DNA from: a candidate division WOR-3 bacterium
GTDB lineage: Bacteria > Hydrothermota > Tepidihabitantia > B3-TA06
Assembly: GCA_965649265.1 (NCBI GenBank)
Contig: CBFGKC010000006.1
Coordinates: 122,883-186,882, forward strand
Direction: 5' to 3'
DNA length: 64,000 nt
Positions 3,824 through 16,639 of the stretch are shown here, piece by piece. Both the position numbers and the translations under genes were made by a program. The notes under the pieces are model-generated. The model made no database searches and was not told the DNA's origin. It worked only from the letters and a program-made list of their open reading frames with translations. Numbering within the stretch: position 1 is the stretch's first letter; each line of letters starts with the position of its first letter.

Positions 3824-5161
3824 TCATTTCACAATTATAACCTTGCAGATTCGGCAAGGATCTACATCGGGGACTATGAAATACACGCCTGCCTCGTGTC
3901 CTTTACCCCATTTGAAAGTGCCTTGTGTTTGAGATGGTTTTATTTTGTCCACCTTGCGGCCGGATGCGTCGTATACATCGGCTTGAAAACCGCTGGGATG
4001 TCCCGAGTATTGCAGCACTATCTCCTTACCGATGGGGGAGAGGAGTTGCCAGGCTGTTATTTGCTCGACAGCAGGTTTTTCCGCGACTCCTACGTTGCCA
4101 AGGGAATCGGTCTTAATAAGACAGATTTTGTAAATACCGCTTTCCGAGGTCATAACCTCTCCGGTAATAATAAAACCCTTATCCTGGGTTTCCTGGACAC
4201 TGAATCCTCTGTTCCATGAGTTTTCGCCGAATTGTTTTGTCCACTGAAAGTTTCCATTTTTATCTAACTTAAGGAGGAGCAGAAAAGTTCCGTGATCGGT
4301 CCTGAAAATTCCGGTTGCGGCTAAACCGCCGTCATATGTCTCATCACAATCATAGGCCTGCAGAGAATCTCTTGCAAAAGACCAGACTGTATCCCCCAGT
4401 TCATCGAGCTTGAGTATCCATAAAGCCTGCCCGCCGTTTTTCCAGCCTGCAACATAGTACCCACCTTCGGTCTGGTGTATGGAGTAGCCCTTTTCTCCTT
4501 CCGTGGACAAGCCATGGCTTTTTGCCCAAAGGAGATTGCCCTTATCATCGGTCTTGACAACGCCCAGATGAAAGGCTGAATCTCTGCCTGTTACAATAAA
4601 ACCGTTATCTTCAGTTTTTGCGATACACAAACCTTCCAGCCCATACTGGTGCGTCCAGACCGTATCGCCGTTCTTGTCGAACTTCATGATAGTCCAGGGG
4701 GTGCCTGTTGCAGCATATCCGTCTGCCGTTTCGATTACACATTCGCCATAAGAAAAACCACTATTATTGCCAATCGCCTGAGTCCATAAAGTGTCGCCAT
4801 AAGGGTTCGTTTTTATCAACCACAAATGAACCGTCTGCCAGCCACCCGCACAACTACCCACGAGCGTATATCCTTCGTCAGTTGTTTGGATGACAGAAAG
4901 GCCTTTACCGCCGTAAGCTTTTGAATCCTTGTATGTTTTAGACCATTGGATTTCGCCCAAAGGATCGGTTTTCAGGAGGCAGGTTCCGGCTACTATATAT
5001 CCTCCATCCTTTGTTTGCTTGACGGAGTATCCTGAATTGAAATCAGCGTCACCGTAAGTTTTCATCCAGCCGGCAACACTCGACAGAGGGAATATCAGCA
5101 ACCCAAGAACCGTCAAGACTATGTTTGTCAGAGGATTAAACACTAACCTCGATTTTTCCAT
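3824..5161 (-). CDS. Exported beta-propeller repeat protein with C-terminal sorting-like domain
   Basis: Signal peptide; repeats of QTxDGGY..G...LIKTD..G..LW; C-terminal YDASGRKV...GVYF; SD GGAGG upstream. Confidence 0.8.
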   Translation of the reverse strand: MEKSRLVFNPLTNIVLTVLGLLIFPLSSVAGWMKTYGDADFNSGYSVKQTKDGGYIVAGTCLLKTDPLGEIQWSKTYKDSKAYGGKGLSVIQTTDEGYTLVGSCAGGWQTVHLWLIKTNPYGDTLWTQAIGNNSGFSYGECVIETADGYAATGTPWTIMKFDKNGDTVWTHQYGLEGLCIAKTEDNGFIVTGRDSAFHLGVVKTDDKGNLLWAKSHGLSTEGEKGYSIHQTEGGYYVAGWKNGGQALWILKLDELGDTVWSFARDSLQAYDCDETYDGGLAATGIFRTDHGTFLLLLKLDKNGNFQWTKQFGENSWNRGFSVQETQDKGFIITGEVMTSESGIYKICLIKTDSLGNVGVAEKPAVEQITAWQLLSPIGKEIVLQYSGHPSGFQADVYDASGRKVDKIKPSQTQGTFKWGKGHEAGVYFIVPDVDPCRICKVIIVK

Positions 5162-5249: not shown

Positions 5250-6551
5250 CTAGCTCGCGTAAGGGAACAGGAACTTTAGCGATGCGCCGAAGCGGTAGAA
5301 CTTTTCGGTATACAAATCTTCCTCCAGCCCGAACTTCTTGGACCAGGTCGCGTACTCGAAGGAACTGTTGAGGACAACATACGAAGAGATAGGTATGCCT
5401 ATCCCTGCGGTTACACCTTTGAGATACTTTGGTGTGTGCTGGCCTGAGTCGGCCTGCGGGATCGCGTCAAAGTAGAAACCTCCGCGTACTATCACAGGCG
5501 ATACGAATTCGGCACCGAAGCGGAACGTGGAACCGTCGTTCACGCCGAGCCTTGAGCCTAAGGCCTCGACGGCAGTGAAGAAGCGAGTCTGGAATTCACC
5601 TGAAAGATTGAGGAAAGGCAAAATCTTCGACCGCAAACCGACGGTGAAGACGCCGGGCAACATGTAGGCTGTTGAGTCATCTACCTGGTGTTTTATCTGA
5701 ATTCCATTAGTGTCCAATACAAGCGTTGAATCAAACCAAGTAATCTCCGTTCCGGAAAGGCTTTCCTCGCCCCATCTCCAGCCCCAGGCTATAGGTGATC
5801 GATATGAGAAGCTTATACCCAACTGGGGAAAGGGTTCCGCAAACGCGCCTACAGTGAAAAAATTTCCTGTCGAGGAGAAGTTACCTTTGTATCTTATTCG
5901 TGTTTCATCGTATATACCGGAGGTGTCCCCGTCTTCAATCTCAAGATCATCGTAAACGCTTACTTCGTAATAGCTGCTTTTGAGCTTCTCTAGTGCGCTG
6001 AAGCTGAAGGCCAGACCAATGGAGTAATTGTCCAGTATGCTCATTGCGATCGCCGGGGTTATTACCCTTAAACCGCCGGTTGCGGTATCGGTCATCTTAT
6101 AACTTCCGTTTTCGAATTCCCAGTTAATCTCCCTGTTGACGGCATTATCAATATGTAGGTGATAGCCGAAAGCAGGATAGAGCACAGCGTATTCCGCGAT
6201 CTGGATGGGCAAAGCTAAAGAGACGTGTGTGAACTGGGGGATGGTGTTATATTTTGTGTAGTATTGCTCTTCTTGTATCTCTTCCTGGCCGAAACCCCAG
6301 TAAAGCCTTCCGCCGATCTCCATTTCAAGATAATCAGCGTCCAGCAAAAGAGCAGGATTGAAAAAGATGGCGTTCGAACCCTGAGCGCTGACCGATCCGG
6401 TATTGCCCATGCCGCAGGAACGGACATCCACGACGGTGGGATTAATTGCGTCAACCATAAATGCATAAACGGTTGAATTTACGAAAAATAGCGGTAACAA
6501 TACGACCAAAGTCTTAAAGGTCGCTTTTTTTTCAAATCCTGACATGCACAT
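5250..6551 (-). CDS. Outer-membrane beta-barrel, FadL/TodX/PorV-like
   Basis: Hatch motif RSCGMGNT...NAIFFNPA, amphipathic strands, aromatic-rich C-terminus. Start moved to 6551/6545, after SD GGAGGT. Confidence 0.75.
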   Translation of the reverse strand: MCMSGFEKKATFKTLVVLLPLFFVNSTVYAFMVDAINPTVVDVRSCGMGNTGSVSAQGSNAIFFNPALLLDADYLEMEIGGRLYWGFGQEEIQEEQYYTKYNTIPQFTHVSLALPIQIAEYAVLYPAFGYHLHIDNAVNREINWEFENGSYKMTDTATGGLRVITPAIAMSILDNYSIGLAFSFSALEKLKSSYYEVSVYDDLEIEDGDTSGIYDETRIRYKGNFSSTGNFFTVGAFAEPFPQLGISFSYRSPIAWGWRWGEESLSGTEITWFDSTLVLDTNGIQIKHQVDDSTAYMLPGVFTVGLRSKILPFLNLSGEFQTRFFTAVEALGSRLGVNDGSTFRFGAEFVSPVIVRGGFYFDAIPQADSGQHTPKYLKGVTAGIGIPISSYVVLNSSFEYATWSKKFGLEEDLYTEKFYRFGASLKFLFPYAS

Positions 6552-6759
6552 ACCTACCTCCAGGCTTGCCTTTTTTGTATCTATAGTGTATACCGAAACA
6601 TGTGATTTGTCAAGCCCTTCTGTGAGCTTCTGGTCATCTAAGTCAAGCCAAAAAAACATCTGTAACCGTCAGCCCTCTCAGTCATATCCCGGCATTGGTC
6701 TTACAGACTGAGTTAATTGGAATAATATCCAAATCACAAGCAGAGAAAGATGTGTTACT

Positions 6760-7130: not shown

Positions 7131-7188
7131 GTGTGTTACGGGGGGGGGACGGGTGTTACGGGTGGGTGTTACGGGTGGCGTTACGGGG
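7131..7188 (-). repeat. Short CCCGTAAC(A/G)C tandem units directly after the radical SAM stop
   Basis: Four GTTACGGG units on the + strand. The first unit on the minus strand supplies the TAA stop. Confidence 0.75.
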
Positions 7189-8203
7189 CAGAGAGAATCT
7201 GGGCGACGAATGGTTCGGTACCACCGCATTCATTTGCGGCGGCCCGGCACGATGCCCGGCATGTCTCGATATCCTTGCACCCTCTGCACATCTCCGGTAT
7301 ATCCTCAATGAACTCCTTCCTTTCGGCGGAATCCATCAGCTCCCAGAAACTTTTTTCCCTGATATTCCCGAGAACGAGCGGGGTGTGGTTGCACGGACGC
7401 AGATTGCCTATGGAATCCACCACCGGGTAGCACTCCTCGGTTCCCGCCGAGCAGAAACCGAAGCCGAGATGCGGGTAGTTCTTAATATCCACGAGGCAGC
7501 AGGGGATAGGTATCGATACGCTTATGGGGAACCTCTTTTCTACCGCGAACCGCTCGGCTGTGTCGAGCATGAAGAGCACATCCTGGGGGGAGGGGGAGAG
7601 TTCGTCGAGATTCTCGAGTCCCCTTCCGCCGGGATTGAAGCGGTTGAGCATCACGCCGTGCGTACCGAGGCTCCTTGCGAACTCCAGGGTTTCCCAGAGC
7701 CTTGCGAGGTTGATCTTTGTGACGATCAGGGCGACTACAATCTTCGCCTTTGTCGAAAGCACGGCCTCTATCCCTCGAACTGATTTCTCGAAGCTTCCAC
7801 TGCATCCCTGCAGGTATTCGTGCTCGTCTGGCCTGTCCGATAGAAGCTGGATCTCGAAAAGAGAGATTCCAGCCCTCACAAGCGTCTTTGCGAGTTTCTT
7901 GTCGAGCGCCTGGCCGTTCGTGATGATGTTGAGCTGAGCGCCCGAGAGTGCGGCCTGAAGCGAGATGTCCACGAGATCGGGTCTCAGAGTCGGTTCTCCG
8001 CCGCTTATCGTGAAGAGTGACGGCTTCGTCTCTTTTAAGAGCTTTGCCAGCATCTCGCGGGTTTCCTTTGGGTTCAAGTCCTCATGTACAGTTTCCGGAT
8101 GCTTATGCCAGATGTTGTAGCAGAAGCGGCATTTGAGATTACATCTTTGGGTTACTTCGAAGATGAGGATTTTCTGGCGGCGGTCCCTTAACGAATCGTT
8201 CAT
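7181..8203 (-). CDS. Radical SAM/SPASM-domain enzyme, peptide/protein-maturase type
   Basis: CNLKCRFC (CxxxCxxC), SGGEP, ITNG. SPASM region CSAG...DSIGNLRPC...CRGC.....CRASC. No N-terminal RRE extension. ATG is one base from the stop of the last array gene. Confidence 0.93.
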   Translation of the reverse strand: MNDSLRDRRQKILIFEVTQRCNLKCRFCYNIWHKHPETVHEDLNPKETREMLAKLLKETKPSLFTISGGEPTLRPDLVDISLQAALSGAQLNIITNGQALDKKLAKTLVRAGISLFEIQLLSDRPDEHEYLQGCSGSFEKSVRGIEAVLSTKAKIVVALIVTKINLARLWETLEFARSLGTHGVMLNRFNPGGRGLENLDELSPSPQDVLFMLDTAERFAVEKRFPISVSIPIPCCLVDIKNYPHLGFGFCSAGTEECYPVVDSIGNLRPCNHTPLVLGNIREKSFWELMDSAERKEFIEDIPEMCRGCKDIETCRASCRAAANECGGTEPFVAQILSAP

Positions 8204-8204
8204 G

Positions 8205-8780
8205 CTAATTATCTTCCTTTTTCTCAGTTCCTGACGTATCCGGTTTGCTGACTATTAGTTTTGCCAGGTGAGAGGTTTCAGAATTAAGCGAGGATATTTT
8301 CATGAAGACCCTGACGGTTTCAGGCGGAAGGCCTCGAACATCCAGCCTCGCTTCCAGAAGTTCCGCGGAGCTGTCGAATTTCCCGTCGACCGGGTCGAGC
8401 GATATAATATAAGGTTCAGCATCCGGTCGGCTAACCGCGGCCGTAGCACTGTATATTATGTCACCAGGTATTTCTGTTCTTCCAAGAACCTTTATAGTTA
8501 CGGAATCCGCACCCCTGGTCGGGTTGGGATAGATCAAAAGCGAGTCGACAATCTCATCTGCAGGCGGAGAAAAATGAACATAGTAGCAAGTAATCGCCGG
8601 TTCATAGTGACGGTGTGTCAGACATCCTATGAGCGAAAGTAAGCCTCCTAGAAGAACCAGTTTAAAATGTCTGGTTGTTCTTGAAAATCGGTTCTTGCTC
8701 TCTAAAACCGAAAGAAGATGGAATACTAAACCTCCCGCTCGGCTCAACAACCCTGAGAGCCTATTACGCAACTTGATCAC
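8205..8780 (-). CDS. CY-motif array paralog 12 (lipoprotein type)
   Basis: Conserved leader, lipobox LIGC, AITCYYV, YPNPTRGADSV, DGKFD..AE. Confidence 0.85.
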   Translation of the reverse strand: MIKLRNRLSGLLSRAGGLVFHLLSVLESKNRFSRTTRHFKLVLLGGLLSLIGCLTHRHYEPAITCYYVHFSPPADEIVDSLLIYPNPTRGADSVTIKVLGRTEIPGDIIYSATAAVSRPDAEPYIISLDPVDGKFDSSAELLEARLDVRGLPPETVRVFMKISSLNSETSHLAKLIVSKPDTSGTEKKEDN

Positions 8781-8785
8781 TGGTC

Positions 8786-8813
8786 AATATACGGCTGATA
8801 GGGATGGTGTCAA
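8786..8813 (-). promoter_or_regulatory. Sigma70-like promoter TTGACA-16-TATATT, leaderless start for paralog 12 plus the radical SAM gene
   Basis: The -35 overlaps the upstream stop codon. The -10 ends 5 nt before GTG 8780. No SD. Confidence 0.6.
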
Positions 8814-9370
8814 TCCTTTTCTTCCGTAGAGTCAGGGTCCGTCACGACAAGCATTAGTTGTTGCGTATACATGCCTGCCTGGGAGGTGTAGAAGGTCAGG
8901 TCCACCCATGTTGTTTCGGAGACAAGCCCTCCGATATAGAACCTCCCCTGAACGGCCTCAAGCGTGTCCGAAAAATCTCCGTCAACCGCATCGAGAGGCG
9001 TAAGAAGCGTGTCTGATGCCAGTTTTATCGTCGCGCCGGTAATGATGTTGCCTTCTATTCCCGGATCGTAAACCTTGGCCGTCGCCTTCACCGTTACCGT
9101 ATCCGCGCCTTTTGTAGGATTCGGCGTAATAGCAGCCTCGGTGACTACCACGGGGTCAATTATGGCCATGTCGTAGCAGGTTGCTATGGGTGTCTCCGGC
9201 TGTGCCCTGAGCCAGCCTGCAACAGTCAGAACGAGACCTAAAACGAAGAGCTTGGTCCACCTCGCCGTCTTTTTAATAGTTCCCTCCTCCTCCCAGCTTG
9301 AAAGAACCGGAAGGAGTTTTGCTCCTATCCTCGTTATGAATGATGAAAGCGCGTTTCGAGTCTTAATCAT
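8810..9370 (-). CDS. CY-motif array paralog 11 (SPase I type)
   Basis: Leader ...WEEEGTIKKTARWTK, LRA/Q cleavage, IATCYDM, TPNPTKGADTV, DGDFSDTLE. Confidence 0.88.
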   Translation of the reverse strand: MIKTRNALSSFITRIGAKLLPVLSSWEEEGTIKKTARWTKLFVLGLVLTVAGWLRAQPETPIATCYDMAIIDPVVVTEAAITPNPTKGADTVTVKATAKVYDPGIEGNIITGATIKLASDTLLTPLDAVDGDFSDTLEAVQGRFYIGGLVSETTWVDLTFYTSQAGMYTQQLMLVVTDPDSTEEKD

Positions 9371-9399
9371 GTTTTACTGTACCTCACTTTTCCGGACTG

Positions 9400-9957
9400 T
9401 CAATCTTTTTCTGTCGAATCGGGTTCAGAAATCACAAGCTGCAGCCCTTCAACATTTATGCCTGCCTGCGGGGTGTAGAATGTGATGTAAACCCGGGTGG
9501 TTTCGGGTCCAAGCCCGGTGACGCACAGACGGCCTTCAACTGTCTCGAGCGTGTCCGAAAACTTGCCGTCGACCGCACGGAGAGGGACAATAACCGTATC
9601 GCCGCCAATTCTTGCATCCGCTCCGGAGATTATATTGCCTTCAAGTTTCGAATCGTAGACCCTTGCGGTCGCTCTCACCGTAACCGAGTCGGCGCCATTT
9701 GTGGGGTTAGGCGTAATAGCAGCCTCAGTGATTATTACCGGTTCAATGACGACCGGATCATAACAGGTCGCATACCCCCTGGTCTCTTGGGCCGAGAGCC
9801 AGCCTAGTAAGCCCAGGATGAAACCCAGAATGTAGATTTTTGCAAATCTCGCGAATCCCTTAAGAACCCCTTCCTCCTCCCACCTTGAGAGAAGCGGGAA
9901 GAGTTTTGCTCCAACATTGCTTACAAACGCCGCGAGCGAGCTGCGAGCTTTGGCCAT
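9400..9957 (-). CDS. CY-motif array paralog 10 (SPase I type)
   Basis: Leader, LSA/Q, YATCYDP, TPNPTNGADSV, DGKFSDTLE; SD AAGGAGG. Confidence 0.88.
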   Translation of the reverse strand: MAKARSSLAAFVSNVGAKLFPLLSRWEEEGVLKGFARFAKIYILGFILGLLGWLSAQETRGYATCYDPVVIEPVIITEAAITPNPTNGADSVTVRATARVYDSKLEGNIISGADARIGGDTVIVPLRAVDGKFSDTLETVEGRLCVTGLGPETTRVYITFYTPQAGINVEGLQLVISEPDSTEKD

Positions 9958-10021
9958 AAAATTCCTCCTTGACTGCGACTACTCCTGTTATACAGTTGCA
10001 GGTGCAATAAATTCCCTTAAC

Positions 10022-10561
10022 CTATTCGGTTATCTCGATATCTGAGCTGTCTTCGATTACCTTGTTCTTGCTTGTAGATATTCTGACATGGACTTTTGCG
10101 TTTGCGGTATCGATACCCCTGATGCTTAACTTCGCCGAGATTTCCTCGTATGAACCGTCAAAAGCACTATCCGCAGCCAGCATCTCCACCGTGTCGGAAT
10201 TTGCACCTTTCCCGGTAATGAAACACTGTGCCGATTTTACATAATTGTCCTTGGAGCCTGGGATTATATTGGCTCTGGCTTTGACCATAACCGAGTCGGC
10301 TCCAGCCGTAGGATCAGGCAAAACCTCGATATTATGAATGGGGGGAGGTACAGGCTCGTAGCACGTGACCGGGCAGCAGGCGGTCGAGCCGGCCGCTCCG
10401 GAAAGACCTAATCCTGAAACGAGTGCACTCAGGAATGAAAGCTTCATCCACCTTGCAAGCTTGGGTAGTACCCTGCGTTCCTCGCATCTTGAGTAGAAGT
10501 CAAAAAGCGCAAAACCGGCTTTCCTGAGAATCTCGAAAACAATGTGTCTTGCCTGAGCCAT
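10022..10561 (-). CDS. CY-motif array paralog 9
   Basis: Start moved to MAQARH (10561) by alignment with paralogs. STACCPVTCYEP, PDPTAGADSV. Confidence 0.85.
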   Translation of the reverse strand: MAQARHIVFEILRKAGFALFDFYSRCEERRVLPKLARWMKLSFLSALVSGLGLSGAAGSTACCPVTCYEPVPPPIHNIEVLPDPTAGADSVMVKARANIIPGSKDNYVKSAQCFITGKGANSDTVEMLAADSAFDGSYEEISAKLSIRGIDTANAKVHVRISTSKNKVIEDSSDIEITE

Positions 10562-10568
10562 GATACTG

Positions 10569-11108
10569 CTATTCTGATTCCGTGATGTACAAATCCACTG
10601 TCGTGTAATCTCGCTCCCCTTTATTGGAGGTGGCCTCAATGTTTACACTGCAGGTATCGCCTGCGGCAAGATTGCCTACGTATAATCGAGCTTCTACGTC
10701 TTTCATTCCGTATGGATCGGTTTTCGTGACAATCATCGTTATGGTGTCGTCATTAAGAACACATATCACCTTATCCACATAATCTTCTTCTATGCTTACT
10801 CCATTGGGGACATTTGCGCTCGCTTCAACGGTTACTGAATCTGAGCCTGACGTCGGATTAGGGGTTATTGAGCAGGTTGCGATTTGAGGTTTCGGGTACT
10901 CCATCGGTGCGTAACACGTTATGCAGTTGAGCATGCTGGCCGCACTCAATGCGGTAATTCCTGTCACGAAGGCTCCGAGGAAGGTCGTTTTTACCCACCT
11001 GGAAGCCCTTGGCAGTATCCCGCAATCCTCACAGTGGGAGAAGAAGTTGAAGAGTGATGTTCCCATTCTCCTCAAGGTTTCAAAGAAGAGGTAGCGGCTA
11101 CTGGCCAT
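10569..11108 (-). CDS. CY-motif array paralog 8
   Basis: Leader, SMLNCITCYAP, TPNPTSGSDSV. Confidence 0.87.
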   Translation of the reverse strand: MASSRYLFFETLRRMGTSLFNFFSHCEDCGILPRASRWVKTTFLGAFVTGITALSAASMLNCITCYAPMEYPKPQIATCSITPNPTSGSDSVTVEASANVPNGVSIEEDYVDKVICVLNDDTITMIVTKTDPYGMKDVEARLYVGNLAAGDTCSVNIEATSNKGERDYTTVDLYITESE

Positions 11109-11123
11109 TGTGCCTCCGGTGAT

Positions 11124-11639
11124 TTATTCAGTTATCTCGAGGTCGATTGTTGTATCCGCTCGCTGGTCTTCATTGTCGTATTCTGTGATTTGTATGGTTA
11201 CTGTATCGGGCTCGAGGTCTCCTATATACAACTTCGCGTTCACGGCATATTCATTCGTGTAGTCTCCAGGCTCTATCTTCATGACGGTGGTGTCATTCTC
11301 GAGGATACATATCACCTTTTTCAATTCAATCCCGTTATCGGCAATTGCCTTGGCGGAAACGCTAACAGTGTCGGCCCCTGCCGTAGGATTTGGTGCCACG
11401 GAGGCGTTTTCGATTCGAGGTGATTCAATTGGCAAGTAGCAGCCGGTGGGGATACAGTTGATCATGCTGGCCGCGCTCAACGCGGTAATTCCTGTCACGA
11501 AGGCTCCGAGGAAGGTCGTTTTTACCCACCTGGAAGCCCTTGGCAGTACCCCGCATTCCTCACAGCGAGAGAAGAAGTTAAAGAGTGAGGTGCCTATCCT
11601 CCTCAAGGATTCAAAGAAAAAAAACTTTGTTCTAGCCAT
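11124..11639 (-). CDS. CY-motif array paralog 7
   Basis: Start moved to MARTK (11639, SD AAGGAGG). SMINCIPTGCYLP, APNPTAGADTV. Confidence 0.87.
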   Translation of the reverse strand: MARTKFFFFESLRRIGTSLFNFFSRCEECGVLPRASRWVKTTFLGAFVTGITALSAASMINCIPTGCYLPIESPRIENASVAPNPTAGADTVSVSAKAIADNGIELKKVICILENDTTVMKIEPGDYTNEYAVNAKLYIGDLEPDTVTIQITEYDNEDQRADTTIDLEITE

Positions 11640-11661
11640 GGTTCCTCCTTTCACTGTATTA

Positions 11662-11689
11662 AATATAATCAACTTGCTCGGATTGTCAA
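11662..11689 (-). promoter_or_regulatory. Internal sigma70-like promoter TTGACA-16-TATATT
   Basis: Lies in the 82-bp gap upstream of paralog 7. Same hexamers and spacing as the array head promoter. Confidence 0.6.
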
Positions 11690-11721
11690 TCCATGAAAAT
11701 CACCTGAAATCCTGGCAGGTG

Positions 11722-12249
11722 TTATTTATCAGTAACGCGGAGAACGGTCGAGCCTATGCCCCAGCCTGAGGTTTTTGAATCGACTTTTACAAAGACCTGA
11801 GTGCTGTCCGTTTTGATTTTCTTCACGTATATGCGCCCGATGAGTTCCTCATTATTCTCGTCGAATGCGCCGTCCCTCGCTATCATCCGGATGGTGTCTC
11901 CATCGACTATGCACTGGGCTGAGGCTATTATTTCGAGATCGCTTGCGTTTTCAAGTCTGGCTTTGGCGGTAACGGTCACCGAGTCGGCGCCTTTCGTCGG
12001 GTTAGGCTTGACTACTATCTCCGAAACCCTGGGATATACGGCCACAGGTTCGTAGCAGGTCACGAGCCCCTGATCCAGCGGAGGTTTTTTGGCGCATGCC
12101 GCAATGATGGTCAGCCACGCTCCAGCAAGCGCGAGCTTGAGCCAGCGTGATATCCTTGGCAGAGCGCTTCGTTCCTCACACCCGGTCAGAATGGAGAACA
12201 GTGCCGAGCCTGTTCTCCTCAAAAACCTTGACAGTAACTCTCGCTTCAT
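11722..12249 (-). CDS. CY-motif array paralog 6 (lipoprotein type)
   Basis: Leader, lipobox IAAC, LVTCYEP, KPNPTKGADSV, DGAFDE..E. Confidence 0.88.
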   Translation of the reverse strand: MKRELLSRFLRRTGSALFSILTGCEERSALPRISRWLKLALAGAWLTIIAACAKKPPLDQGLVTCYEPVAVYPRVSEIVVKPNPTKGADSVTVTAKARLENASDLEIIASAQCIVDGDTIRMIARDGAFDENNEELIGRIYVKKIKTDSTQVFVKVDSKTSGWGIGSTVLRVTDK

Positions 12250-12818
12250 AACGAGTCCTTTTCAGTGATAAATAGCGGTAATGAAACCAGTGCTTCTTCA
12301 CCCTTGGAAGTGGCCGCGTGCACGTAGACGAAGGTGGTCCCGGGTTTAAGACCCGCGACGCTGATGCGTGCCTCAATCATCTCGACGGTATCCGAGAAGC
12401 GGCCGTCCACAGGGTACATCCGGATTTTCCTTGACGTATCAATGGCCATTACGAGCCAAGCATCCGACACGTAATTGTTCTCAAGGCCAGGTTCCAGCAC
12501 CCTTGCGGTGCCCGTTATCTTGACAGTGTGCACGCCCCTTGTCGGGTTCGGGCTTGCCTGAACTACTGAGATTTCGGGATCCATCCTTCTCATCATGTAA
12601 CATGTGTGGACAGGACCGTCGCCGTCTCCTCCTGGTCCGGGTCTTGCCTTTTTCCCGCACGAGGCTATCAGGGCGACAACGAGCCCGAGTAGCGAAACCT
12701 TCAAAAAGCGCGCGGTCTTTGAAAATATTGGAGTATCCTGGCATCTCGATAGCGCATTAAACACCAGATTACCTGCATTTCTGAGAACTGCAATCAAGCT
12801 CTTTCTCATCTTTGCCAT
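12246..12818 (-). CDS. CY-motif array paralog 5 (lipoprotein type)
   Basis: Leader, lipobox IASC, Gly/Pro linker, VHTCYMM, SPNPTRG, DGRFSDTVE. Confidence 0.88.
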   Translation of the reverse strand: MAKMRKSLIAVLRNAGNLVFNALSRCQDTPIFSKTARFLKVSLLGLVVALIASCGKKARPGPGGDGDGPVHTCYMMRRMDPEISVVQASPNPTRGVHTVKITGTARVLEPGLENNYVSDAWLVMAIDTSRKIRMYPVDGRFSDTVEMIEARISVAGLKPGTTFVYVHAATSKGEEALVSLPLFITEKDSL

Positions 12819-12837
12819 TCTGCCTCTCCTATCTCGT

Positions 12838-13380
12838 TTAATCTGGTTCAGTAATCACCAGTTCTAAAGATTCAATTTCAATTTGACCGGAAGAATTTTC
12901 TACCTCTAAGTATATCCATGTCGTTTCCGGCTCAAGGTCTCCAACGTAAAGTCGGCCGACTATTCTCTCCGAAGCGGCGTCGAATTTCCCGTCAATCGCC
13001 CGCATGGGGTAATATATTGTATCTCCATCCATTCTCATGCGGGCTGAGCTTATCGTGCTTTCGCCGCTGTAGTGATCGCTAATCTTTGCCGTGGCCTTGA
13101 CGGTTACCGAATCGGCGCCCCTTGTAGGGTTAGGCCTTACGGAAAGTTTGGATAGTTCTATGAGGGGAGGGGGGGCGGGCTTGTAGCACATTATGACGTC
13201 TTCCTTTGCTTCGAGCGAGAGAGCGCTCACGAGTGCCACGAAAAATCCGAGGAATGTGAGCTTCAACCATCTTGCCGCCCCGGGGAGGATGCGGCGTTCC
13301 TCGAATCCGGAAAACGTTCCGAAAAGCCTTCCGCCAATCCTTGCAAAAAAGTCTGCCAGGCGTTTTCTGAGTTCAGGCAT
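12838..13380 (-). CDS. CY-motif array paralog 4 (SPase I type)
   Basis: Leader, LEA/K, VIMCYKP, RPNPTRGADSV, DGKFD...E. Confidence 0.88.
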   Translation of the reverse strand: MPELRKRLADFFARIGGRLFGTFSGFEERRILPGAARWLKLTFLGFFVALVSALSLEAKEDVIMCYKPAPPPLIELSKLSVRPNPTRGADSVTVKATAKISDHYSGESTISSARMRMDGDTIYYPMRAIDGKFDAASERIVGRLYVGDLEPETTWIYLEVENSSGQIEIESLELVITEPD

Positions 13381-13381
13381 A

Positions 13382-13951
13382 TCAATCCTCCTTATTCTCG
13401 TTGCTGTCCGCTTCCGGTGCGGTGATGATTAATTGCCTCCAGGTGCTTTCCGCGTTGCCTGAGTTTGTCCTCACCACTATGTAAATCCAGGTGGTCTCCG
13501 GCTTGTGATCCCCGACGTAGAGACGGCCTTCGACTGTTTCAAGGGTATCGCCGAACTTACCGTCAACCGCTTTCATCGGATATAAAAGGGTATCTCCGGT
13601 AAGCTGCATAATTGCTTCGGAAACAGCGGTGTCACCTGAGCAATAATATGCAGATTCCAATTTTGCGGTTGCCTTGACTGTAACGGTGTCTTTTCCTGCA
13701 GTGGGGTTCGGTGTTGCCGAGACATCGAAGATACTTAAGTGAGGTTCCTCAATAGGCACGTAGCACATGATGATATCGTCGTCCGCCTTGAGCGCTGGCG
13801 CGCCCAGCAGGGTTACCAGCAATCCCAGAACCGAAAGCTTTAGCCATCTTGCCGGTCTGCGTAGGATACCGCGTTCCTCCAATCCGGACAGTATCCCGAA
13901 TAAGGAGCCGCCTATCCGTGAAGAGATGCGGGCCAGTAAGCCTTTTGTCAT
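13382..13951 (-). CDS. CY-motif array paralog 3 (SPase I type)
   Basis: Leader, LKA/D, IIMCYVP, TPNPTAGKDTV, DGKFGDTLE. Confidence 0.88.
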   Translation of the reverse strand: MTKGLLARISSRIGGSLFGILSGLEERGILRRPARWLKLSVLGLLVTLLGAPALKADDDIIMCYVPIEEPHLSIFDVSATPNPTAGKDTVTVKATAKLESAYYCSGDTAVSEAIMQLTGDTLLYPMKAVDGKFGDTLETVEGRLYVGDHKPETTWIYIVVRTNSGNAESTWRQLIITAPEADSNENKED

Positions 13952-14527
13952 CTACTCCTCCCTGGCAGCGCTCGAATCAGCTGCGAGCGAATCAATCCTT
14001 GTTACGGTGTAGGACTGCCAAAGAATCTCTTCATCTTCTCTGGAACTCGTCACGTCTATAAAGAACCAGTGGGTGCCGGTATCCAGGTCGCCTGTGTAAA
14101 ACATGGCCTCAAGAACCTCAAGAGTGTCGTTAAGCTTGCCGTCCACGGCCTTCATGGGAATCCTCAGGGTGTCACGCTGCCTGGAAAGCCAGGCGTTTCG
14201 GATGTAATTGTTCTCAAGGGTCGGGTCCAGAACTTTTGCAGTTACCTTTACTTTTACCGAGTCCGCTCCTCGAGTCGGATTTGGTGTGATGGACACATCC
14301 GAAATCTTTACCTCCGGCATCCTCATGGCTACGTAACAGGTCTTAATTGTTTCTACCTCGGCGGAAAGTGCTCCGATGGCTGCGGTAAGAAATCCAAGCA
14401 GTGAGAGCTTTAACCAGCGCGAAGCGCTGGGCACAATCCCGCGCTCTTCGAATCGCGACAGGAGTGAAAAGAGACCTCCTCCCAGCACTTCAAGAATCCT
14501 TACGACGAACCCTTTCGTTCTCGCCAC
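13952..14527 (-). CDS. CY-motif array paralog 2 (SPase I type)
   Basis: Start moved to GTG 14527 (VARTKG), just after the upstream stop. LSA/E, IKTCYVA, TPNPTRGADSV. Confidence 0.86.
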   Translation of the reverse strand: MARTKGFVVRILEVLGGGLFSLLSRFEERGIVPSASRWLKLSLLGFLTAAIGALSAEVETIKTCYVAMRMPEVKISDVSITPNPTRGADSVKVKVTAKVLDPTLENNYIRNAWLSRQRDTLRIPMKAVDGKLNDTLEVLEAMFYTGDLDTGTHWFFIDVTSSREDEEILWQSYTVTRIDSLAADSSAAREE

Positions 14528-14528
14528 G

Positions 14529-15101
14529 TCACTCCACCTTTGTCGAATCAGTCCTGATAGAATCAGGCTCCGAGACTTCAAAATAAAACCAGCTCGCTTC
14601 CAGTGCATCCTGGGATGTCTGGACGAGCATTGAGATCGAGTACTGGCCCGGTTCAAGATTTCCAACGTAAACCGTACCCTCGAGCACCTCGAGCGTGTCG
14701 TCCATCTTGCCGTCAAGTGCTTTGACCTTGAACCTCGTCGTATCACCGTCCCAGGAGAGCCAGGCGTCCTTTATGAAGTTATCCTTGATATTCGAGTACA
14801 TCACCTTGGCCTGGGCCTTCACTTTCACCGAATCCGCTCCCTTCGTGGTATCAGGGGTTACGGACTTCTCTGTTATGATGACGTCGGGAATCCTCGCGAC
14901 GATGTAGCAGGTGACTTCCGGATCCCTGGCTTGAAGTGAGAGTGTCGCGACTAGCGAGGCTATGATTCCCAGGGTCGAGATCTTTATCCATCTCGCGGCA
15001 CGCGGCATGACGCCTTTTTCTTCTATCATTGTCAGAAAATGGAAAATTGCATCTCCCAGTTTCCCTAACAGCCTGGATAAGAGGTTGCGTGTCTTGGCCA
15101 T
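14529..15101 (-). CDS. CY-motif array paralog 1 (SPase I type)
   Basis: Start moved to MAKTRN (15101, SD AAGGAG). LQA/R, EVTCYIV, TPDTTKGADSV, DGKMDDTLE. Confidence 0.86.
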   Translation of the reverse strand: MAKTRNLLSRLLGKLGDAIFHFLTMIEEKGVMPRAARWIKISTLGIIASLVATLSLQARDPEVTCYIVARIPDVIITEKSVTPDTTKGADSVKVKAQAKVMYSNIKDNFIKDAWLSWDGDTTRFKVKALDGKMDDTLEVLEGTVYVGNLEPGQYSISMLVQTSQDALEASWFYFEVSEPDSIRTDSTKVE

Positions 15102-15151: not shown

Positions 15152-15179
15152 AATATAAGCCCCAAAAGACAGGTGTCAA
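15152..15179 (-). promoter_or_regulatory. Array head promoter TTGACA-16-TATATT
   Basis: Hexamers read directly about 50 nt upstream of the first array gene. Confidence 0.65.
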
Positions 15180-15316: not shown

Positions 15317-16639
15317 ATGCATCCATTTCTGGTTTTCTGTTGTTGTTTGATTTCATCTTTGACTTGGAATAGACATTATGATTTTCGGTTTAGTGACCAC
15401 TGTAGCGCGCTTGTGCCGGTAGAGGACGGTTACGTGATTACGGGTAACACTATGCGGTATCTATTCGTGCAGAAGGTCGATACTCTGGGAAATCAAGTCG
15501 GTTACAAAGAGTGGTATAAGGCCGAAGGTTATGACATAGAGAGAATGTCTGATGGTTATATTATTCTTGCGTACAAAGACGAATCTCCCAGGCACGGGAT
15601 TTGGTTGGTAAGAACAGATAGCGATTTTGACACACTTTGGAGTAGAAGCTATGGATATAATAATGGAATTATGGCAAAATCTCACTCATTTGATTTAACA
15701 GATGACAGTGGTTTAGTGATGGTCGGTGAGTGCGGCACGGGTCTTATTGTCTTTAAAACCGATAGTCTTGGTGATAGCTCCTGGGTAAAAAAATATTTTC
15801 AGTCTGTCTCGATGCGCGCTGGGAATTTTATTGAAGAAACATCTGATCAAGGTTTTATTGTTACGGGAGTTTGTGAGGAACGTTTTTTTGCACTGAAATT
15901 GGATGAGAATGGGGATTCCTTATGGTGTAAGAAATATTTTGAGGAAAAAACAGGTGAAGGTCTTTGTATAAGAGAAACCTCCGACAAAGGCTTTATAGTA
16001 TTGGCTAGGATAAGGTATGGTAGTTCGGATTCCTTGCTTCTCATCAAGACGGATTCTTTTGGAAACGCTTTGTGGGTGAGAAAATTCAATTCGATGTCTC
16101 ATTGGACTAGAACATGTTATATTGAGGTTCTGGATGATGGTTATGTTATGATTTCAGGGTCACAAGAAGGTCCATTAGTCAGGAAATTTGACGAGTCTGG
16201 GAATGTCCTTTGGACAAAGACCTACAATCGTAATTTCGGTTATTTTTCCGGATTTGAAGGCACATGTATTCATTACACATCGGATAAAGGTTTTATTATT
16301 GGCACCGCTTTGGATATATCTCCATACGGATCAGACCTCTGGCTGGTGAAAACCGACAGCCTAGGAAACACGGTTCCTCTTGAATCCGTGATAGAGCCAA
16401 CGGAGACTGCCGTTAGCGAAGTTCATCTGAGTGTTTTGAATTCAGCTGTTGCATATTCCTTACCTGCTGGCGAGCGTTGTTTGTTGAAAATCTATGATGT
16501 TAGTGGAGTATTGAAAAAAGGAGAAATTGTTTGTGGCCGCGGAGAGATGCGACTAAAAGAATTCCCTGTAGGGGTTTATTTCGCTGAGTTACAGTTCATG
16601 CGAAGTGCTGAAATCAAAAAGGTATTAGTTTTTCCCTAG
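15317..16639 (+). CDS. Exported beta-propeller repeat protein with C-terminal sorting-like domain (same family as 3824-5161)
   Basis: ETSD.GFI...KTDS.G...W repeats; IYDVSG...GVYF C-terminus; AT-richer than its flanks. Confidence 0.8.
   Translation: MHPFLVFCCCLISSLTWNRHYDFRFSDHCSALVPVEDGYVITGNTMRYLFVQKVDTLGNQVGYKEWYKAEGYDIERMSDGYIILAYKDESPRHGIWLVRTDSDFDTLWSRSYGYNNGIMAKSHSFDLTDDSGLVMVGECGTGLIVFKTDSLGDSSWVKKYFQSVSMRAGNFIEETSDQGFIVTGVCEERFFALKLDENGDSLWCKKYFEEKTGEGLCIRETSDKGFIVLARIRYGSSDSLLLIKTDSFGNALWVRKFNSMSHWTRTCYIEVLDDGYVMISGSQEGPLVRKFDESGNVLWTKTYNRNFGYFSGFEGTCIHYTSDKGFIIGTALDISPYGSDLWLVKTDSLGNTVPLESVIEPTETAVSEVHLSVLNSAVAYSLPAGERCLLKIYDVSGVLKKGEIVCGRGEMRLKEFPVGVYFAELQFMRSAEIKKVLVFP

Follow-up and report, generated by a model that had tools for sequence, protein, structure and literature searches.

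The precursor array and its N-terminal leader

We analysed a stretch of 64,000 nucleotides, here called the window, from a candidate division WOR-3 bacterium (GenBank assembly GCA_965649265.1, contig CBFGKC010000006.1, positions 122,883 to 186,882). Twelve tandem genes of 171-191 codons occupy positions 8205-15101 of its minus strand and are followed directly by the gene of a radical S-adenosylmethionine (SAM)/SPASM enzyme (7181..8203, minus strand, 340 residues). The twelve products, referred to as precursors or as paralogs 1 to 12, share one order of parts: an N-terminal leader, a hydrophobic region (h-region) of 14-16 residues, a short polar linker, an invariant Cys-Tyr pair (CY) at about residue 65 and a domain that begins with PNPT.GAD. 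Over their whole length they are 29-42% identical to paralog 1, and M1, G16, R37, K40, C65, Y66, P83, T86, G88, V92 and D130 are the same in all twelve, with a conservation of at least 90% at F20, E27, L44 and G45.

The leader is a translated segment of about 40 residues in which three motifs stand in register in each of the twelve copies, namely G..[LIV][FL] at 14/16, [EQ][EDS] at 25/27 and R[WFH].K at 35/37. The h-region begins at residue 39-43 in the window copies (mean 41, range 33-47 over 72 family members), and most other window proteins that have an N-terminal hydrophobic stretch carry it no more than 11 residues in from the nearest start. Both the late beginning of the h-region (placed at about residue 35-42) and the conserved motif ahead of it had been noticed in an original prediction made from the letters alone, and both are borne out here. 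Conservation was calculated on 74 unique sequences pooled from the window, from related loci and from database matches. Mean column entropy was 1.89 bits in leader residues 2-40 (11 of 39 columns conserved at 70% or above), 2.02 bits in the h-region, 2.89 bits in the linker and 2.24 bits in the mature domain (23 of 93 columns), with C65 and Y66 conserved in 100% of the members; the pooled set spans three genera, and adjacent copies in it may have a recent common ancestry, as in paralogs 7 and 8. The leader is therefore conserved at least as well as the mature domain. Paralogs 7 and 8 themselves (window positions 10893-11639) are about 82% identical over their first 60 residues, with no difference from R37 to S58, and 30-40% identical elsewhere, a pattern suggesting that the 5′ module recently underwent duplication or gene conversion.

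If translation started near the h-region, the leader would be an untranslated annotation artefact. In-frame TTG or GTG codons inside the leader of some copies would allow such a start, but the idea is already contradicted and we regard it as extremely improbable. Past codon 1, paralogs 10 and 11 are free of ATG, GTG and TTG up to codons 94 and 68, respectively, so that any synthesis of their h-regions must include the leader. It is the amino-acid sequence that is conserved, and the start codons are aligned in the 12 window copies as well as in 32 copies from six related genomes, each of which starts at most six codons from position 1 of the profile (31 with ATG, one with TTG); most of these open with M-A-K/R-x-R. 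Shine-Dalgarno (SD)-like motifs lie 7-13 nt upstream of nine of the twelve leader start codons, three starts follow the previous stop codon by 0-1 nt and one overlaps it by 4 nt. In addition, the promoter-like sequences TTGACA-16-TATATT of paralog 12 and TTGACA-16-TACAGT of paralog 11 end 6 nt before the start, a spacing that fits leaderless mRNAs beginning at the leader start codon. Judged from start codons, SD motifs, gene abutment and promoters, the leader is translated, and the suspicion that the true starts lie at the h-region finds no footing.

The structure of paralog 4 was modelled with AlphaFold2 on a 76-row alignment, giving a mean predicted local distance difference test score (pLDDT) of 90 and a predicted template-modelling score (pTM) of 0.62. 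The model consists of a helix at 2-28, a break at 29-32 that corresponds to a G-x-L-P hinge, a second helix at 33-55 that includes R-W-x-K and the h-region, an 18-residue coil at 56-73 that holds CY, and a seven-strand Ig-like beta-sandwich at 74-176. The sandwich resembles ML/NPC2, the C-terminal Ig-like domain of sulfite oxidase, SoxZ and RbmA, with a template-modelling (TM) score of about 0.4 in Foldseek. Helix 1 is amphipathic and not membrane-spanning (mean hydrophobic moment, muH, 0.61; Kyte-Doolittle hydropathy, KD19, 0.67), and the leader has a net charge of +5.2 over 72 members; L8, L12, G16, L19/F20, L23/S24 and E27 form a single conserved face. According to the model, then, the leader is a 27-residue amphipathic, net-basic helix which a Gly/Pro hinge, EE-R-G-x-L-P, joins to a helix made of the R-W-x-K n-region and the h-region. 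A metagenome protein of the family, P0187, carries a Glu/Gly-rich insertion of about 20 residues in the hinge between helix 1 and ARWLK, and therefore the two leader modules are separable.

The region after the leader has the parts of a Sec signal peptide, that is, a basic n-region, an h-region (mean KD14 2.26) and a small-x-small or lipobox c-region. Cleavage sites were assigned by regular expressions only, on 72 members: 49 have a signal peptidase I (SPase I)-like c-region (e.g. LSA↓Q or SLEA↓K), 19 have a lipobox upstream of CY (IASC, ISAC, LIGC), in two the CY Cys serves as the lipobox Cys, and two show neither type. Thus, the h-region looks like that of a cleavable Sec-type signal peptide, SPase I-like in about two thirds of the members and of lipobox type in about one quarter. 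CY lies some 8-10 residues past the signal peptide, falling within residues 63-67 in 64 of 72 members and displaced to residue 72-79 in some. Its Cys is the sole cysteine of paralogs 1, 2, 4 and 11, and because of these four paralogs we rejected a disulfide as the reason why it is kept. We also rejected a type IV pilin or class III signal peptide, since the hydrophobic run after G45 has only about 11-12 residues, a conserved Glu is lacking, and the helix stops at residue 55, ahead of the 18-residue coil; Foldseek matches of the precursor to archaeal pilus and archaellum chains had a root-mean-square deviation (rmsd) of 16-18 Å, and the pilin-like reading of them was likewise set aside. None of the twelve paralogs matched a Pfam family (E ≤ 0.01), their only NCBIfam match was a sub-threshold one to AgrD (16.2 bits against a cut-off of 19), and residues 1-72 brought no usable match in the ESM Atlas.

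The adjacent enzyme, the export route and the T-C-Y-x-P site

The gene after the array encodes a protein with a radical SAM domain (PF04055, E 1.5e-20) and a SPASM domain (PF13186, E 4.3e-07). The cysteines of its CxxxCxxC motif (C21, C25 and C28) and eight conserved C-terminal cysteines are present in 32 homologs, so that it has the motif, the radical SAM domain and the auxiliary-cluster cysteines by which radical SAM/SPASM maturases are recognised. For none of the best 25 of its 76 matched NCBIfam families did the score reach the curated cut-off (the best was 111.8 bits against 500), so that it was not assigned to a named radical SAM/SPASM equivalog (PqqE, anSME-like, GeoRSP, NirJ, AhbD, PapB and others), a result that was the same for four relatives. 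By sequence profile, its nearest solved structures are PqqE (E 2.6e-24), SkfB and anSME (4k37, E 2.7e-13). An AlphaFold2 model of the enzyme (pLDDT 92) aligned with SuiB, anSME, SkfB and PqqE at TM 0.65-0.70, the target-normalised TM being highest for anSME (0.65) and PqqE (0.71), which have no RiPP recognition element (RRE; RiPP, a peptide that is synthesised ribosomally and modified post-translationally); for 4k37 the two values were 0.69 and 0.65. The radical SAM core begins at about residue 10, as against about residue 92-135 in the RRE-bearing CteB, SkfB and SuiB. The enzyme is thus without an N-terminal RRE, and a search of the whole genome for PqqD (PF05402, E ≤ 0.1) gave no match, although divergent RREs could escape a single Pfam model; both results agree with the original prediction, which had seen no PqqD/RRE on the enzyme or nearby. 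Complexes predicted for the enzyme with three 4Fe-4S clusters, SAM and leader residues 1-45 had an ipSAE of 0.01 in two runs made without controls, a value that we count neither for nor against binding.

The leader is confined to one family of the candidate phylum (WOR-3/TA06, "Stahlbacteria"). The window genome (2.74 Mb, 96% complete) holds only these 12 precursor copies, and a profile search of 5.8 billion proteins returned 43 matches, all named "hypothetical" and all from TA06/WOR-3 bins. Across 272 genomes of the phylum, full-length matches were restricted to the family of the window itself (9, 18 and several copies, and a single copy in three cases). A profile of the leader alone found only these cassettes in the same genomes, besides three matches at E 0.002-0.004, and among 1.84 billion representatives it matched 41 proteins, nearly all of 170-200 residues and matched at residues 1-72. 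Elsewhere in the phylum it is the beta-sandwich alone that matches, as repeats in open reading frames (ORFs) of 800-2700 residues; such tandem sandwich repeats, with neither leader nor CY, are found across the phylum (e.g. G022:C26, G224:C1 and G260:C5).

The leader travels with the enzyme gene, as the profile search for the leader already indicated by finding only these cassettes. An ortholog of the enzyme, 66-89% identical, lies directly after the last copy in all six related loci that continue that far, and at two loci from a distant clade, whose leader is shorter, an enzyme gene likewise comes directly after the last precursor. In one relative (locus L041, genome G093) precursor and enzyme have both been lost from between the same flanking genes, where a 51-codon leader-only ORF remains at 9906-10061. 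No other neighbour conserved together with the precursor-enzyme pair was found, whether protease, transporter or partner protein.

The original prediction had further stated that the paralogs show no consistent twin-arginine consensus, and this is what we observed. An RR pair occurs in six of the twelve, at four different positions (11, 13, 29 or 31); in none of the window copies is the invariant R37 preceded by a basic residue, and the S/T-R-R-x-F-L-K pattern of a twin-arginine translocation (Tat) signal does not stand next to their h-region. TatC (PF00902) had no match in the window genome or in 10 other genomes of the family (81-96% complete), that is, in none of 11, compared with 29 of the 61 genomes of the class. 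With no consistent twin arginine and no TatC match, export of the precursors must therefore use Sec. In the distant clade (L037-L040; genomes G052 and G054), where TatC is present, the n-region is shorter and ARRGFLP, ARRGLIP, KRGLMP or RKGVLP replaces EE(R/K)G.LP. This replacement hints that the leader may have descended from a Tat-type n-region, which we treat as a lead only.

The wider enzyme family comprises 526 proteins at E ≤ 1e-40, from Chloroflexota, Planctomycetota, Myxococcota and others, and beyond 14 close orthologs identity drops to 40-44% among the matches listed. We confirmed 225 loci in species-representative genomes and kept 80 of them, which are 38-44% identical to the window enzyme except for one from the window's own family (L042, 70%), the others (L043-L121) lying outside that family. 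A partner, defined as a same-strand ORF of at least 100 residues ending next to the enzyme start, was found at 77 of the 79 loci outside the window's family. CY is present in 69 of these 77 partners and CYxP in 54, at densities per 1000 residues of 5.30 and 3.55, respectively, against 0.36 and 0.065 in a background of 1250 ORFs. The flanks agree as well: T stands at -1 in 73% of the partner sites and 45% of those of the window family, P at +3 in 66% and 58%, with A/M/V at +4 and P at +7/+8. A local site, [V/I/A]-T-C-Y-x-P, is thus common to the window family and to the partners of related enzymes in other phyla.

The N-termini in front of this site are diverse. By regular expression the 77 partners divided into 35 with Tat signals, 14 with two helices and 28 others, where the last class includes a few wrongly picked high-GC ORFs and some of the two-helix proteins assigned to "Tat" are WRRRL artefacts. 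In Chloroflexota partners the Tat signal is clear (SRR[D/E]FMK...); a first site comes just past it and a second about 95 residues on. Planctomycetota and Myxococcota partners have a hydrophobic helix, GPRWKRRL, a second hydrophobic stretch and a lipobox, with sites 70-540 residues in. These two-helix N-termini and the leader share a layout (M-x-x-R, Gly at 14/16, P..R-W at 33-38 with W38 in both, a basic stretch and an h-region), a likeness of arrangement only; we do not claim homology, the hhalign probability being 1.25%. A check against the curated families of Pfam and NCBIfam showed that neither the enzymes of the wider family nor their partners are covered, and literature searches found no description of the leader or of a T-C-Y-x-P system.

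Arrangement of the array

All twelve precursor genes lie on the minus strand, and their numbering follows the direction of transcription. Paralog 1 (14529..15101; 190 residues) starts at 15101, its leader (residues 1-40) being encoded by nt 14982-15101, and has an SPase I-like c-region, SLQA↓RD, and CY at 65. Paralog 2 (13952..14527; 191 residues; leader nt 14408-14527; CY at 64) opens with a GTG at 14527, 1 nt past the previous stop. It is followed by paralog 3 (13382..13951; 189 residues), which starts at 13951, with leader residues 1-38 at nt 13838-13951 and CY at 63, and by the copy used for modelling, paralog 4 (12838..13380; 180 residues), with its start at 13380, its leader at nt 13261-13380 and the CY Cys, its only one, at residue 65. 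The next two carry lipoboxes: IASC in paralog 5 (12246..12818; 190 residues; start 12818; leader nt 12699-12818), where CY is at 73, and IAAC in paralog 6 (11722..12249; 175 residues; leader nt 12136-12249), whose start at 12249 makes the 4-nt overlap with the previous stop.

Paralog 7 (11124..11639; 171 residues; start 11639; leader nt 11520-11639) has a promoter-like site of its own and the SD sequence AAAGGAGG. Its near-duplicate over the first 60 residues, paralog 8 (10569..11108; 179 residues), starts at 11108 with the leader at nt 10989-11108. No SD-like motif was found upstream of paralog 9 (10022..10561; 179 residues; start 10561; leader nt 10442-10561). The two copies that have no alternative start before codons 94 and 68 are paralog 10 (9400..9957; 185 residues; start 9957; leader nt 9838-9957) and paralog 11 (8810..9370; 186 residues; start 9370; leader nt 9251-9370), the latter beginning with ATG. 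The last copy, paralog 12 (8205..8780; 191 residues), has a GTG start at 8780, a leader at nt 8661-8780 and the lipobox LIGC.

Four strong sigma-70-like sites occur within the array on the minus strand, at 8786-8813, 9376-9403, 11662-11689 and 15152-15179, the first two being those that end 6 nt before a start codon, as would fit leaderless mRNAs. Given these internal sites, the array is probably not one transcript. The genes that flank the cassette encode a weakly matching BamG/PorV-like outer-membrane barrel and SBBP-repeat proteins with tails like those of the type IX secretion system (T9SS) (window positions 5250-6659, 3824-5161 and 15317-16639); only some of them are syntenic in relatives, and none is conserved together with the cassette.

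Possible roles of the leader and comparison with known systems

With a confidence somewhat short of even, we tentatively explain the leader as an addition to a Sec signal peptide, specific to this lineage, which couples export to a cytoplasmic modification, the enzyme reading a local site. According to this proposal, the adjacent cytoplasmic radical SAM/SPASM enzyme would modify the invariant [V/I]-T-C-Y-x-P site of the precursors, recognising the local motif and not the leader, much as anSME reads the sulfatase motif. Until the modification is made, the leader would hold the precursor back from Sec export, either in the cytoplasm or on the inner side of the membrane. It might do so by masking the h-region or by making it engage the translocon more slowly, and contact with the enzyme may assist it. 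We infer, in other words, three things: the modification falls on CY, it takes place ahead of export, and the timing of export is set by the leader. That the enzyme reads a local motif rather than the leader is most likely, because T-C-Y-x-P, and not the N-terminus, is what all substrates seem to have in common. A Tat signal by nature exports after cytoplasmic maturation. An export-coupling role is favoured because the leader is limited to a Tat-less family, a Tat signal being the chief other solution seen among partners of related enzymes; and since the enzyme has no RRE and the Tat route is missing, these proteins face a genuine difficulty in being modified ahead of Sec export, for which the leader could be the remedy.

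Several points weigh against this proposal. The effect of the leader on export is a prediction, and cleavage, too, is deduced from regular expressions only. The single conserved face of helix 1 would suit a protein-binding helix equally well, and the position of CY at 63-67 in most members may reflect a ruler-like distance from leader to site. Partners with plain lipoprotein signals and no extension (L051, L052, L066, L094 and L118) indicate that a hold-back device is not needed everywhere. Moreover, effects of the ESPR (extended signal peptide region), a known pre-signal extension, are inconsistent between proteins in the available part of the source (PMC8151025). A more specific mechanism, a latched Sec signal peptide, is one that we consider unlikely: the pre-helix would fold back on the h-region and hide it from the signal recognition particle (SRP) and SecA until T-C-Y-x-P is modified, with Gly16 against Gly45, much like the pair of Gly residues found where Planctomycetota partners have their two-helix N-termini. 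If it were true, a Sec-based checkpoint of "modify first, export after" would have evolved in a Tat-less lineage, as part of a widespread, undescribed T-C-Y-x-P modification of exported proteins in at least five phyla.

A leader of the RiPP type, in which helix 1 and R-W-x-K bind the enzyme and are required for CY modification, with any delay of export a by-product of binding, is possible but in our view doubtful. Such a leader would account for several observations: it strictly accompanies the enzyme and is found on no other cargo, one helix face is conserved, and the distance from leader to CY is nearly fixed (63-67 in 64 of 72 members). Lacking an RRE, the enzyme would need an unconventional mode of binding, of which there are examples: QhpD depends on QhpC's 28-residue leader, as far as the part of that study available describes (PMC7876137), and for bufferins preliminary results, in the portion of the source at hand, make the signal peptide part of the recognition sequence (PMC12452194). 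However, enzymes 38-44% identical to this one are paired with T-C-Y-x-P substrates that have Tat or plain lipoprotein signals, or whose CY lies 120-540 residues in; P0187 tolerates a 20-residue acidic insertion in the hinge and other members have CY at 72-79; and in size the fold of the enzyme is closest to anSME and PqqE, neither of which has a leader-binding domain of its own. The original prediction had proposed that the leader is the docking site of the enzyme and/or delays export so that an oxygen-sensitive enzyme can act first. Its premises survive, since the leader is translated, conserved, specific to the family, and always found with the enzyme, which has no RRE, while docking as stated is not supported, given the related enzymes that adjoin partners with the same T-C-Y-x-P and no such leader; the other half of the proposal, a delay of export, is plausible.

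Two further explanations would separate the leader from the radical SAM step or from any present function. The h-region could be a permanent, uncleaved signal anchor and the leader a cytoplasmic domain for oligomerisation, membrane binding or signalling. A net-basic, amphipathic leader is what a cytoplasmic helix on the membrane surface would look like, AlphaFold2 draws one continuous helix at 33-55, and cleavage is predicted from motifs. Against these stand a hydrophobic stretch of only 14-16 residues, small-x-small or lipobox motifs after the h-region in 68 of 72 members, the fact that the leader was never found without the enzyme cassette, and the joint loss of precursor and enzyme in one relative, so that we think an anchor quite unlikely. 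Still less probable, to our judgement, is a Tat relic, that is, a long n-region inherited from a twin-arginine signal, disabled when Tat was lost and now without function. The motifs of the distant TatC-bearing clade in place of EE(R/K)G.LP, the clear Tat signals of Chloroflexota partners and the TatC match in none of the 11 family genomes would fit such a history, but a relic should decay, and over the 74 members conservation in the leader exceeds that in the linker and is not below that in the mature domain. A quick tree of the enzymes (88 rows, none dropped) places the window family and the distant clade, the two clades of the window's phylum, on long branches, and we draw no origin from it.

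The question of how an oxygen-sensitive enzyme of the cytoplasm can modify a Sec substrate ahead of its export is also raised for bufferins, in the part of the source available (PMC12452194). The present cassette is a minimal case of two genes, with no conserved chaperone, protease or transporter, and its 40-residue leader is the obvious candidate for a coupling device. It also exposes a large uncurated radical SAM/SPASM family whose exported partners carry T-C-Y-x-P, with no Pfam or NCBIfam model for either partner. Bufferins are the closest system in logic and face the same problem of premature export: according to the accessible portion of the source, bufferin and oxazolin precursors have Sec signals, some of lipoprotein type, and are modified at Cys in the cytoplasm and then exported, and premature export has to be avoided (PMC12452194). 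The difference is that an MNIO enzyme with a DUF2063-RRE partner acts there and a lone radical SAM/SPASM enzyme here, with no conserved partner protein in the cassette; a conserved pre-signal helix is not reported for bufferins in that portion of the source (PMC12452194). In the QhpC/QhpD system, as described in the part of the report available, a radical SAM enzyme works in the cytoplasm and cross-links Cys residues of a small protein, whose binding to the enzyme depends on a 28-residue N-terminal leader, and the product goes to the periplasm (PMC7876137). The same part of the report has the QhpC leader removed by the protease QhpE and the product exported by the ABC transporter QhpF, whereas the window cassette has no conserved protease or transporter and its leader precedes a general signal peptide. 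CrpC/CrpA, in the available part of its description, indicates that SPASM enzymes can modify whole proteins, and CrpC has a predicted RRE (PMC13692751).

For the leader itself the nearest likeness is the ESPR, in the accessible part of the source a conserved extension of about 25 residues before a canonical Sec signal peptide, which is no signal alone and is reported to slow inner-membrane translocation of some cargo (PMC8151025). The paralog leader (residues 1-40) likewise precedes an h-region with SPase I or lipobox motifs. In contrast to the ESPR, it shows no match to PF13018 (no Pfam family at E ≤ 0.01), its cargo is a single Ig-like beta-sandwich of about 110 residues and not an autotransporter or TpsA protein (type V), and it is a helical, amphipathic segment of about 40 residues tied to a cytoplasmic modifying enzyme. 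Tat signals held by chaperones of the TorD/DmsD type also have a long n-region, and export is withheld until cytoplasmic maturation is done. The leader resembles them in its long n-region before the h-region, and the related Chloroflexota partners use Tat signals; it differs in that the paralogs have no consistent twin arginine and all 11 family genomes are without a TatC match. The closest pairing of enzyme and substrate is that of anSME/AtsB, also a minimal radical SAM/SPASM enzyme without an RRE that acts, before export, on a short local motif of a protein with a signal peptide. The sulfatase motif read by anSME is (C/S)-x-P-x-R, where the paralog site is T-C-Y-x-P, and we know of no conserved pre-signal helix in sulfatases. 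By analogy, the leader would thus work like an ESPR or like a chaperone-held Tat signal while being a member of neither class.

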